From assembly GCA_964568715.1 (NCBI GenBank), contig CAZMQU010000001.1:23932-87931 (forward strand): 64,000 bases of DNA. The letters run 5' to 3'. The DNA comes from an uncultured Halanaerobiales bacterium. Lineage in GTDB: Bacteria; Bacillota; Halanaerobiia; B1SED10-174. A program made the translations under genes and the position numbers. Of the stretch, positions 54,921 through 57,432 are shown piece after piece (positions within the stretch are counted from its first letter, which is position 1; each line of letters opens with the position of its first letter). A model generated the notes under the pieces. It did not search any database. It saw only the letters and a program-made list of their open reading frames with translations, and was not told the origin of the DNA.

Positions 54921-55904
54921 TTAGCGAATCAAATGCCAGCGTTGTTCGTGCATGTTGATATTGAACTTGCCTTTGTTGTTTTTGTGAATATTGCCTTTGA
55001 AAACAAAGGCGTCCAAATATGCTTTCGACTCAATTAACCCCCCATATACCTCAAAATCGCTTTCCGTTGTCATGCCGGGCAAATAGTCAGCTGCATTGAA
55101 AGGTTCCAACAGTTTAAGTTCTTTTTCATATTCACAGTATAGTTGCCACATTAACATTTCCAAATTATTATCGGGAAACAATACATTAAGGCCGATTTTA
55201 TTGCTGGCTTCCCGGCGGGGTATCATATAGTTGTGAGCATACAGTCTTTGGGTCAAATAATCGATTATGTCCGGAATCCGCTCTTTATCGCTATTGGCAT
55301 AATGCAATTCCAACAAACGGCGGGCCAGAAATCTAATCAAAGAATAATTGCGGTGAACATTACCCAAGGCCAAAGGGTGCACTTTTTCTGTCAAAAAGGA
55401 AAAAATGCTGATCAAGTGTTGAGGATCGGTGAGATGGGCTCGTTCGATGGCTAACTCGATAAATGATACGACATCTTCGACGCTTACGGGTACCTTGGCA
55501 TGAGGATTGTTGGGGTCATCGGGGTTGAAGGCATTGGCAACGCTAGGGTCAATCGGTCCTAATTCTCCCATCTTACCCATAACGATCTCATTGGCCCCCA
55601 AACAAATTAAAGTGCCGGCGCTGTAAGCCCGGAAGGGTATTAATACAGAAAAGTTAGCGGTATATTCTCGGATCAGATTGACCAAACGCCAAGGGGTTAG
55701 GACATCGCCACCGCGGGTATATAGAAATAGGTCGATTTTCTTCTGTAAACCAAATTGTTCCAAATGACGGAAAAAGATTCTGATAATGTCGGGAGCTACC
55801 CTTGTACTTACATTTTCCCGGTCACCGGTAATGTAGCAAATTACAGACGAATCTCTGATATTTTCAATTTCAGCCAATAAATCCAATCTTTTTTGGCGGT
55901 TCAT
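54921..55904 (-). CDS. SDH/ClpP-fold serine protease (S49-like)
   Basis: IDLFLYTRGG, AYSAGTLICLGA, ELGPIDP, LYAHNYMI; RBS AAGGAG. Confidence 0.85.
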   Translation of the reverse strand: MNRQKRLDLLAEIENIRDSSVICYITGDRENVSTRVAPDIIRIFFRHLEQFGLQKKIDLFLYTRGGDVLTPWRLVNLIREYTANFSVLIPFRAYSAGTLICLGANEIVMGKMGELGPIDPSVANAFNPDDPNNPHAKVPVSVEDVVSFIELAIERAHLTDPQHLISIFSFLTEKVHPLALGNVHRNYSLIRFLARRLLELHYANSDKERIPDIIDYLTQRLYAHNYMIPRREASNKIGLNVLFPDNNLEMLMWQLYCEYEKELKLLEPFNAADYLPGMTTESDFEVYGGLIESKAYLDAFVFKGNIHKNNKGKFNINMHEQRWHLIR

Positions 55905-55961
55905 AGCAGCACTCCTTATTTGTTCTGTTAATAGTATTCACCTTCTGAAATAAAAAAAACT

Positions 55962-55991
55962 GAATAATAATAATATTTTGCAGGAATAATA
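55962..55991 (+). promoter_or_regulatory. Candidate sigma-G promoter for the sHsp genes
   Basis: GAATA-N18-AATAATA vs consensus GHATA-N17/18-CATAHTA; AT-rich context lowers specificity. Confidence 0.4.
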
Positions 55992-56002
55992 AACAATGTA
56001 AC

Positions 56003-56780
56003 GGAGGGAGCAATTAAGCGGATATTTGAAAATAACAATCAAGTAAAAATACAAGGAGGAAATTCATGATGTACGCTTCAGGATTTAGTCATACACCATC
56101 TTCTTTAAGTCCTATTTACACCACTCCCCACACTACACATTCCGGACGGGGCATCTCCTATGGATATCCGATTGCTTCTAGCATTTCGCCGGGCTCTTGG
56201 TCAAGCCATCCCAGCTTGCATAGCGGATTGCATAGTGGACTTCATAGCGGTTTGAGTAGTCATAGCTATTCACCCTATGCCCACGGAGTACAGAATTTTG
56301 TCGACCCCTTCAGAACTGCAACAACCTACGGCTTTAATCCGATGGGATGGTCCCATGGTCACTTCAGCACCATGTCAACAAGCCCCATATCGTCACATTC
56401 ACCCTATTCAACAACCAGCGGTTGGAGCGGTAGCGCATTTTCATCTTCGGGTCTGACACAGCCGCGGGTGGATATTGCAGAAACCAACAATGAAATTGTT
56501 GTAACCGCTGAATTGCCAAATATTAATTCCGACGATCTGTATCTGACAGTTACCGACGATTCTTTGAGCATTTCATGCAACTCTTTCGCCGGAGGCGGCC
56601 ATACCAGCATTCACAGAACCGTTGCACTGCCTACCAGCGTTCGCTCTGAAAGAACAGAAGCTTCCTATACCAACGGTATTTTGGAAGCCCGTTTGCCCAA
56701 ATCCGATGTAACCACCAGACGACGTATCAGAGTTAGCCCAACGGTTAGCGGCTAAATTCGTTTAATTAATTGCTCCCTCC
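56003..56780. repeat. Perfect 15-bp inverted repeat flanking first sHsp gene
   Basis: GGAGGGAGCAATTAA at 56003-56017 and TTAATTGCTCCCTCC at 56766-56780. Confidence 0.9.
56066..56755 (+). CDS. Hsp20/alpha-crystallin protein with S/G/H/Y-rich low-complexity N-terminus
   Basis: PRVDIAETNNEIVVTAELPN...ASYTNGILEARLPK; about 130-aa low-complexity leader with LHSG x3. Confidence 0.88.
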   Translation: MMYASGFSHTPSSLSPIYTTPHTTHSGRGISYGYPIASSISPGSWSSHPSLHSGLHSGLHSGLSSHSYSPYAHGVQNFVDPFRTATTYGFNPMGWSHGHFSTMSTSPISSHSPYSTTSGWSGSAFSSSGLTQPRVDIAETNNEIVVTAELPNINSDDLYLTVTDDSLSISCNSFAGGGHTSIHRTVALPTSVRSERTEASYTNGILEARLPKSDVTTRRRIRVSPTVSG

Positions 56781-56805
56781 CAAATTTATTTAAGGAGAAT
56801 CAGCT

Positions 56806-57432
56806 ATGTATCAAAACCAACCCCATCAACAAAGGTCCCAATTCCGCTCTGAAAATTCATCGCAAGAAATTCAGCAAACCCATTCTCAGCAAGAACTACA
56901 GTCACAACAAAATAATTCCCAATATCAATCACAGAAAATGCATTCTCAAGATGAATCGCACCAAGCCCATTCTCAGCAAGAATCCCAATCGCAACAAATC
57001 CATTCTCCCCAGCAAGCTCAACAACCCCAAGCCGGGCAAATGCATTCTCAACAACATCACCGGCAGGCCCAACATTATTCACCGAATCATTCTCAACATA
57101 CAATAAAGGCTACGAACCTTAGTATGCCGCAATACATTCCTTTCATGGACGTTGTAGAATCAAATCAAGATGTCAGATATCTATTTGCTTTGCCTGGTTT
57201 ACGCCCCGAACAGGTGGAAGTTTGTATAACCGACAATTATTTGCAGGTTCAAGCCCACATGCCTCCAAAAGGTGATGACTCCTGTTACCTGCACAAAGAA
57301 ATCTTGGAAGGCAACTTTACCAGGGAGGCAATGATACCACCTTATATCAATTCCAGTAACCCGAACATCAATTTCCAGGACGGCATCTTAACCGTGGCTT
57401 TTAACAAAACTGCCAACCAGTGTATACCCTAA
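56806..57432 (+). CDS. Hsp20/alpha-crystallin protein with Q/H/S-rich repetitive N-terminus
   Basis: PFMDVVE...LPGLRPEQVEV...GNFTRE...FQDGILTVAFNK; HSQQE-type repeats. Confidence 0.85.
   Translation: MYQNQPHQQRSQFRSENSSQEIQQTHSQQELQSQQNNSQYQSQKMHSQDESHQAHSQQESQSQQIHSPQQAQQPQAGQMHSQQHHRQAQHYSPNHSQHTIKATNLSMPQYIPFMDVVESNQDVRYLFALPGLRPEQVEVCITDNYLQVQAHMPPKGDDSCYLHKEILEGNFTREAMIPPYINSSNPNINFQDGILTVAFNKTANQCIP

Follow-up and report, generated by a model that had tools for sequence, protein, structure and literature searches.

The locus and its three gene products

We analysed a stretch of 64,000 nucleotides (nt; hereafter the window) from an uncultured Halanaerobiales bacterium, in which a gene for a serine protease of ClpP fold stands back to back with two genes for small heat-shock proteins (sHsps). 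The protease gene, identified from the list of open reading frames (ORFs) and a PF01972 match, lies on the minus strand (54921-55904) and encodes an SDH-type enzyme of 327 amino acids (aa) that is predicted to be soluble. On the plus strand lie sHspA (56066-56755; 229 aa) and sHspB (56806-57432; 208 aa), and a divergent gap of 161 bp (55905-56065) separates the protease gene from sHspA. A preliminary description of this DNA had delimited the same ORFs and the same gap, and our ORF and gap check reproduced its coordinates exactly. The comparative analyses given below indicate with high confidence that the protease and the two sHsps form a conserved module, which is probably an undescribed system that protects, and later clears, proteins inside the dormant spore.

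The best Pfam match of the protease is PF01972 (SDH_protease; 59.1 bits, cut-off 31.3), to which only residues 4-125 align, and PF00574 (CLP_protease) gave no match at E <= 0.01. With the NCBIfam SDH equivalog NF047768 it scored 66.2 bits, below the 250-bit cut-off of that model; we take it for a divergent subfamily of the SDH type, though NCBI gives several of its orthologs that name. Residues S95 (in YSAGT), D119 (in GPIDP) and H224 (in YAHNY) are invariant across 22 homologs, down to 42% identity, which fits the Ser-Asp-His order expected of the SDH type, with D119 or D144 as the candidate catalytic Asp. The AlphaFold2 model of the protease (predicted local distance difference test, pLDDT, 87.4) found SppA, the 1510-N NfeD protease and ClpP as its top Foldseek matches in the PDB, each with a probability of 1.00 and with query TM-scores of 0.35-0.41. 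The model suggests that the N-terminal half is a ClpP-like domain with a ClpP/crotonase-like fold, while the C-terminal helical and beta part of about 200 aa is without counterpart in these three matches. No solved structure was found by a sequence search of the PDB. The protease family is large and tightly conserved: our search for relatives returned 6286 sequences, of which the best 120 have 55-81% identity, and the named carriers include Moorella, Pelotomaculum, Desulfotomaculaceae, Dethiobacter, Candidatus Contubernalis, Acetohalobium, Fuchsiella, Natroniella and Sporohalobacter. The papers that our literature search found to name the SDH/PF01972 family concern, by their titles, unrelated topics, and no biological role for the family was found there.

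Both sHsps match the HSP20 family (PF00011; Pfam cut-off 20.8 bits), sHspA at residues 136-223 with 30.3 bits and sHspB at residues 116-204 with 41.2 bits, and both match solved sHsps (e.g., Hsp16.5); sHspB also gave weak matches to the NCBIfam models of IbpA/IbpB. The layout of sHspA is a disordered, low-complexity N-terminus of about 130 aa, then the alpha-crystallin domain, then an RRRIRV C-terminal tail. In its AlphaFold2 model, residues 1-130 have a pLDDT below 50 and no secondary structure, and the domain (pLDDT 82-93) is a confident beta-sandwich at residues 131-212. The alignment of sHspA orthologs has the same plan, with a kept MYVSS.NP N-terminus, a lineage-specific low-complexity middle of 100-190 aa (S/H-rich in the window, Q-rich in other Halanaerobiia, and G/M-rich in relatives of Moorella), a strongly kept domain, and RRR[IV][KR]V at the C-terminal end. 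Within the otherwise freely drifting middle, an internal [ST]Y[GS]FNP motif is kept. Orthologs of sHspB are usually 120-150 aa long, and in the window copy about 105 aa of Q/S/H-rich sequence are added at the N-terminus. As for the I/V-x-I/V anchor, the sHspB of the window and those of Halanaerobiia end shortly past the last strand and show no clear motif. In the tree of alpha-crystallin domains, the sHspA proteins of the module form one clade of 26 (support 99/99), including those of Tepidibacillus and an Oscillospiraceae metagenome-assembled genome (MAG), and the second sHsps form a separate clade of 25 (support 95/99) in which the window copy has a long branch. Both clades exclude the housekeeping Hsp20s of these genomes. 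The window sHspB evolves faster than any other member of its clade (end branch 1.45), and its N-terminal extension (56806-57120) carries repeats such as HSQQE-QSQQ that are missing from its orthologs.

Predicted promoters in the divergent gap

The preliminary description had reported sigma-G/F-like motifs on both strands of the gap, and both are present. They go beyond chance, since orthologous loci in many lineages have them at the equivalent position. On the plus strand, the predicted forespore-type promoter of the sHsp operon (55962-55991) is composed of GAATA (55962-55966), an 18-nt spacer and AATAATA (55985-55991), and is a perfect match to the test pattern GHATR-N17/18-MATXHTA. For the protease gene, the predicted -10 element of forespore type is GGTGAATACTA on the minus strand (55932-55942), 27 nt before the start codon. 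The test pattern is the B. subtilis sigma-G consensus, whose -10 element begins with C, with this first base relaxed to C/A. The relaxation was made because promoters mapped in C. difficile have such a first base (PMC3789822 Table S6).

Of 24 upstream regions of sHsp operons, from about eight families, 10 carry a perfect motif as against 0.24 expected from shuffles, and 22 carry it with at most one mismatch as against 4.4 expected, one of these 22 (L007) having masked N bases in its -35 element. The corresponding frequencies for the upstream regions of ORFs in the window genome are 1.0% (perfect) and 13% (at most one mismatch). The genes of the small acid-soluble spore proteins (SASPs) were used as a positive control, and the motif was found in six of the seven best SASP genes from four of the genomes with an sHsp operon, perfectly in four of these genes; the variants include AATACTA, which is also found in Halanaerobiia sHsp operons, and the window genome's own ssp gene has GTATA-N18-CAAAATA. 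A list of all perfect motifs in the window genome was set aside as a check in favour of this control, its 46 candidates being mixed (a CwlD-like amidase, an AbrB-like protein, ClpP, and many unrelated genes). The ClpP gene of that genome (contig C11:2661-3254) has a perfect GAATA-N17-AATAATA 18 nt 5' of its start codon, which may be a forespore promoter, may mark a TepA-like paralog, or may be due to chance.

In 23 of 27 protease loci, a [C/A]ATxHTA heptamer (of the form [C/A]ATA[A/C]TA) or a one-off variant stands 16-39 nt before the start, with GG just 5' of it in about 15 loci, the window included; the -35 element is irregular, being ACATA, GAATA or GCATA in many loci. The protease -10 element resembles the mapped C. 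difficile sigma-F/G promoters GGTAAATACTA and GTGAATAATA, and the ClpP-like tepA of that species is sigma-F dependent, with a mapped promoter containing GGTAAAACTA (PMC3789822 Table S6). Inspection by eye of the region upstream of the protease gene also led us to drop sigma-B and sigma-H as readings, as spacing and -35 did not fit. In the window the divergent promoters stand back to back (55952-55966), such that the protease GTTTT, part of a minus-strand T-run, abuts the GAATA -35 element of the sHsp operon, and two RNA polymerases on these promoters would bind within about 60 bp. Because the motif is conserved across orthologs, both transcription units would most likely be read by forespore RNA polymerase, and we consider their expression in the forespore to be quite probable.

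The same upstream regions bear on two other assignments. One could conceive of an ordinary module for vegetative stress, with sHsps induced by heat or salt and a degradative protease as their partner, since sHsps are classic stress proteins and the organism is halophile-like (its closest relative being a Halanaerobiales MAG). However, as the preliminary description had stated for the gap, heat-shock operators are missing: the CIRCE element, allowing up to three mismatches, had no match anywhere in the window, and no CtsR-like site was found within the gap. The only sigma-70-like sequence in the gap is a single weak 9/12 match that overlaps the forespore-type motif and is not a convincing promoter, and an Rfam scan of 3.2 kb in E-value mode gave no family, so no known thermometer or leader. 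Moreover, a separate, ordinary Hsp20 (141 aa) is encoded elsewhere in the source genome, and of 61 same-class genomes searched, 9 have the module, as against 56 with an Hsp20. Such a stress module is thus very unlikely. The preliminary description had named sigma-A heat promoters, together with a protease that does not co-occur with the sHsps, as what would speak against its proposal; what we found are forespore-type motifs and genes that co-occur.

The second assignment is to the spore coat, in which case the sHsps would be mother-cell coat proteins like CotM and CotP of B. subtilis, and the protease a coat processor like YabG. HSP20-family proteins, namely CotM and CotP, are components of the B. 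subtilis spore coat (Galperin et al. preprint), and Q-rich tails could conceivably serve as cross-linking substrates. Nevertheless, sigma-K (AC-N16/17-CATANNNTA) or sigma-E patterns upstream of the sHsp operon are sporadic and not conserved, whereas the GHATR-N17/18 forespore pattern is conserved and common to SASP genes, and we consider this assignment very improbable. The promoter evidence agrees poorly with a coat role, and likewise with a heat-shock role in vegetative cells. Of the sporulation-linked storage or scaffold function that the preliminary description had put forward, the link to sporulation is supported by the forespore-type, SASP-like promoters. Its analogy with CotM/CotP is not supported, for those are coat proteins and the promoters here match those of SASP genes, on which ground a location in the spore core would be more likely than a coat or scaffold role.

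Linkage of the genes and a predicted RNA duplex

All nine same-class genomes that carry the protease have both sHsps immediately adjacent to it (9/9). For co-occurrence we used a sample of 401 genomes of the phylum, with ortholog cuts of E <= 1e-111 for the protease (next best, paralogs, 2.5e-71) and E <= 2e-26 for sHspA (next best 1e-16). Protease orthologs were found in 24 genomes and sHspA orthologs in 21; 13 genomes have both, as against 1.3 expected if the two were independent, a ratio that is overstated as related genomes are not independent samples. The two genes are adjacent in 12 of the 13, and in the exception they are 12 kb apart on one contig. The linked unit supposed in the preliminary description is thereby borne out.

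The adjacency is kept in several arrangements. The protease is divergent from sHspA-sHspB in the window genome and its closest relative, and divergent from sHspB-sHspA in other Halanaerobiia; in three other families sHspA-sHspB converge on the protease; one genome has the protease flanked by one sHsp on each side; and in Tepidibacillus (Bacilli) and an Oscillospiraceae MAG the protease is divergent from sHspA alone. When neighbouring ORFs were clustered, no neighbours other than the sHsps proved to be conserved from lineage to lineage. The linkage survives rearrangement, which argues for a functional tie rather than chance as the reason for the grouping.

The sHspA cistron is bracketed by two short segments that could pair in the mRNA. 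The 5' arm, GGAGGGAGCAATTAA (56003-56017, plus strand), is 100% complementary to the 3' arm, TTAATTGCTCCCTCC (56766-56780, plus strand). The former starts 11 nt past the -10 element, near the predicted 5' end of the mRNA, and the latter starts 11 nt past the sHspA stop and lies some 12 nt ahead of the sHspB ribosome-binding site. Equivalent arms that differ in sequence and are complementary over 8-16 nt were found in 13 of 17 sHspA-first loci (besides the window, L016, L017, L018, L022, L023, L039, L051, L052, L055, L056, L057 and L059), whereas the longest complement in random 90-nt pairs has a mean of 6.1 nt and a maximum of 10. Examples of arms from different loci are GCGGGGGTGAA, GGGGTGAAGGTC and GGATGGAAGCAGG, and further ones are TGTGGGGGTAAAATAG and GTGAGGGC.GATCCC. 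The changes in the arms amount to natural compensatory variation, and the predicted duplex would close the sHspA cistron, 600-870 nt, as a loop. The 5' arm is ribosome-binding-site-like and the 3' arm is like its complement; in several loci, the 3' arm could pair with the sHspB ribosome-binding site instead. The duplex may protect the mRNA 5' end, so that the message is long-lived, or may set the ratio of sHspA to sHspB. In the sHspB-first loci of Halanaerobiia, there was no clear signal of a duplex over the AT-rich background. No Rfam family matches the long-range duplex, which is possibly a new RNA element and, with compensatory changes supplied by nature, makes a clean example of long-range pairing in an mRNA that lends itself to mutation.

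Upstream of the module in the window, profile searches identified an SleB-like hydrolase and ndk, and downstream of it a HAD hydrolase, miaB and mutS; in the clustering of neighbouring ORFs none of these was kept with the module elsewhere. The source assembly (2.16 Mb, 96% complete), whose nearest named relative is a Halanaerobiales MAG, encodes SASP, GPR, SpoVAC/SpoVAEB and SpoIVA, and so by its gene content has the core genes of a spore former. The PADLOC anti-phage defence models gave no match for the protease, sHspA or sHspB.

Proposed role and relation to known systems

We propose, with a probability of roughly 0.45, that the locus encodes a forespore-expressed proteostasis module composed of an sHsp pair and a clearing protease. 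A late forespore sigma factor (sigma-G, possibly sigma-F) would transcribe the two-gene sHsp operon alongside the SASP genes, and sHspA with its shorter partner sHspB would accumulate in the spore core. There the pair, probably as a hetero-oligomeric holdase, would keep the proteins of the core in solution during dehydration, heat and dormancy. The protease would likewise be made in the forespore and kept in store by the spore. On germination or in outgrowth it would clear the sHsps, perhaps with bound clients and other spore proteins, in the way that SASPs are cleared by GPR and that TepA works in outgrowth. By analogy to GPR and TepA, the protease would most likely act on revival, with the sHsps as its preferred substrates. 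Taken by itself, a direct relation between the protease and the sHsps has somewhat less than an even chance, and the timing of the protease at germination is a tentative assignment. The gene content, the conserved linkage, the two dedicated sHsp clades, the conserved promoter motifs of forespore type, the intact set of Ser, Asp and His and the disordered N-terminus are what the analysis shows; the compartment and timing, the core localisation, the holdase action and the protease-substrate relation we infer from them. A wider reading, to be held only tentatively, is that of a hitherto unrecognised spore-core shield, in which a two-sHsp hetero-oligomer serves for vitrification or anti-aggregation, an SDH-type germination protease dismantles it, and a covarying mRNA panhandle joins the 5' end to the sHspA-sHspB intergenic region; the pairing would then stabilise the message or set the sHspA:sHspB ratio. 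The lineages concerned would be those of many anaerobes that form spores: Halanaerobiia, relatives of Moorella, of Desulfotomaculum and of Pelotomaculum, Dethiobacter, and some Bacilli and Oscillospiraceae.

Several observations weigh against the proposed module. Regarding the promoters, the sigma assignment has a motif as its basis, the -35 element of the window protease gene is poor (GTTTT), and the window -10 elements begin with A whereas that of the B. subtilis consensus begins with C. Regarding the link to sporulation, SpoIVA is present in 21 of 21 sHspA genomes and 23 of 24 protease genomes, but this co-occurrence is weak evidence since SpoIVA is in 325 of the 401 sampled genomes (81%); it therefore shows only that the module lives in spore formers and is no evidence of a need for it in sporulation. 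As many SpoIVA-positive lineages are without the module, we take it to be accessory to the spore programme. Relatives of the protease are also found in non-sporulating phyla and an archaeon: the distant homologs (36-45% identity) in Ignavibacteriota, Syntrophales, Verrucomicrobiota, Spirochaetia and one archaeon have an sHsp neighbour in no case. The contexts of the non-Firmicute homologs are restriction-modification- or toxin-like. Among those of about 45% identity in Ignavibacteriota and Syntrophales MAGs, one (L008) stands beside a gene like those of MazF/PemK-type toxins and another (L010) beside large methylase/helicase-like genes. Finally, the partners are separable. The protease is found without sHspA in 11 sampled genomes, the sHsp pair is found without a protease ortholog in eight genomes of one family, and in one genus, probably Moorella-like, the pair is gone in four of six species (L025, L026, L028 and L034). 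Because of the 11 protease-only and the eight pair-only genomes, the tie is not obligatory, and the idea that the protease cleaves the sHsps, as far as it depends on linkage, is weakened.

This separability is what favours the main rival, according to which the genes are co-regulated in the forespore yet functionally independent, the one encoding a general spore or germination protease and the others a separate spore-core chaperone, and they would travel together only because genes of the forespore tend to cluster and these have a back-to-back promoter region in common. In the Moorella-like genus, the pair comes and goes at the same locus; it is kept in L022 and L023, the flanking genes are the same, and the protease with its forespore-type -10 element remains in all six species. 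In the family without the protease (L051-L057), the sHsp pair stands beside hisZ/hisG and GerAB/GerAC-like germinant-receptor genes, and it retains a GCATA/GTATA-N17/18 promoter and the RNA bracket. Independence does not readily account for an adjacency kept in 12 of 13 genomes through at least five rearrangements, also in distant classes, with no other neighbour conserved; moreover, the convergent arrangements share no promoter region and still keep the linkage. We thus hold independence to be possible but doubtful.

In another alternative, the protease would be a maturation enzyme that clips the disordered N-terminus of sHspA (or of sHspB) during spore formation and thereby activates the chaperone or alters its assembly. 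The MYVSS.NP and [ST]Y[GS]FNP motifs, being kept in a drifting region, could be recognition sites, and forespore-type promoters precede both genes; but the protease-less family retains the same sHspA architecture, and current data cannot separate clipping from degradation. We regard maturation as unlikely.

The proposed module is of known kinds, in that spore-associated sHsps and spore-stored proteases have been described; forespore sHsps and a role for PF01972 were not found in the literature. We found no report of a forespore sHsp, and HSP20 proteins in spores appeared only as the coat proteins CotM/CotP. The main text of a Moorella spore proteome paper does not mention the module proteins. 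The protection of spore-core proteins is usually ascribed to low water and calcium dipicolinate, and that of DNA to SASPs, and to our knowledge the standard picture has no chaperone dedicated to the spore core. If the proposal is true, spore resistance, in Moorella lineages too, would gain a further arm in which a conserved pair of sHsps under SASP-type promoters protects proteins, and the module would be the first biological context for the SDH/PF01972 protease family. Moorella is known to form very heat-resistant spores (PMC8745062).

In structure, the best matches to the N-terminal domain of the protease are SppA and NfeD/1510-N, which are self-compartmentalising peptidases of ClpP fold; the likeness is limited (query TM-score 0.35-0.41), and these are membrane-anchored enzymes with a Ser/Lys dyad, whereas the window protease is predicted to be soluble with Ser/Asp/His. 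Like IbpA/IbpB of Enterobacteria, the module has two different tandem sHsps that are inherited together, which is suggestive of a cooperating hetero-oligomer. Unlike the module, which is without heat-shock signals and has one sHsp with a disordered N-terminus of 100-190 aa, IbpA/IbpB are under sigma-32 heat-shock regulation with RNA thermometers. Artemia p26 and the class I sHsps of plant seeds are developmentally stockpiled in dormant, desiccated stages and are removed once these revive; the likeness is one of logic only, in unrelated lineages and with no linked protease.

Closer comparisons are found among spore proteins. CotM and CotP are likewise alpha-crystallin proteins recruited to the spore, but they are made in the mother cell, whereas the module has forespore-type promoters, two dedicated clades and long disordered N-termini. 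TepA (YmfB) of B. subtilis is a ClpP-fold protease with no adjacent ATPase gene and expressed in the forespore, as is predicted here, and the preliminary description had invoked it. The comparison is apt as a functional analogue but not as family kinship (PF01972 match and no PF00574): the window protease has the Ser-Asp-His order and a C-terminal helical/beta domain of about 200 aa, and is not a TepA ortholog. TepA and GPR have been treated as the two major germination proteases (PMC11960778). The GPR/SASP system is similar in that abundant protective proteins are made in the forespore under sigma-G and a forespore-made (sigma-F/G), stored protease is used at germination, as is proposed here. 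There is no homology between the two, GPR being of peptidase family A25 and SASPs being DNA-binding proteins, whereas the cargo of the module is two alpha-crystallin proteins and its protease is of ClpP fold; in essence, what the module has in common with that system is this division of labour and a promoter motif that matches the SASP genes of the same genomes.

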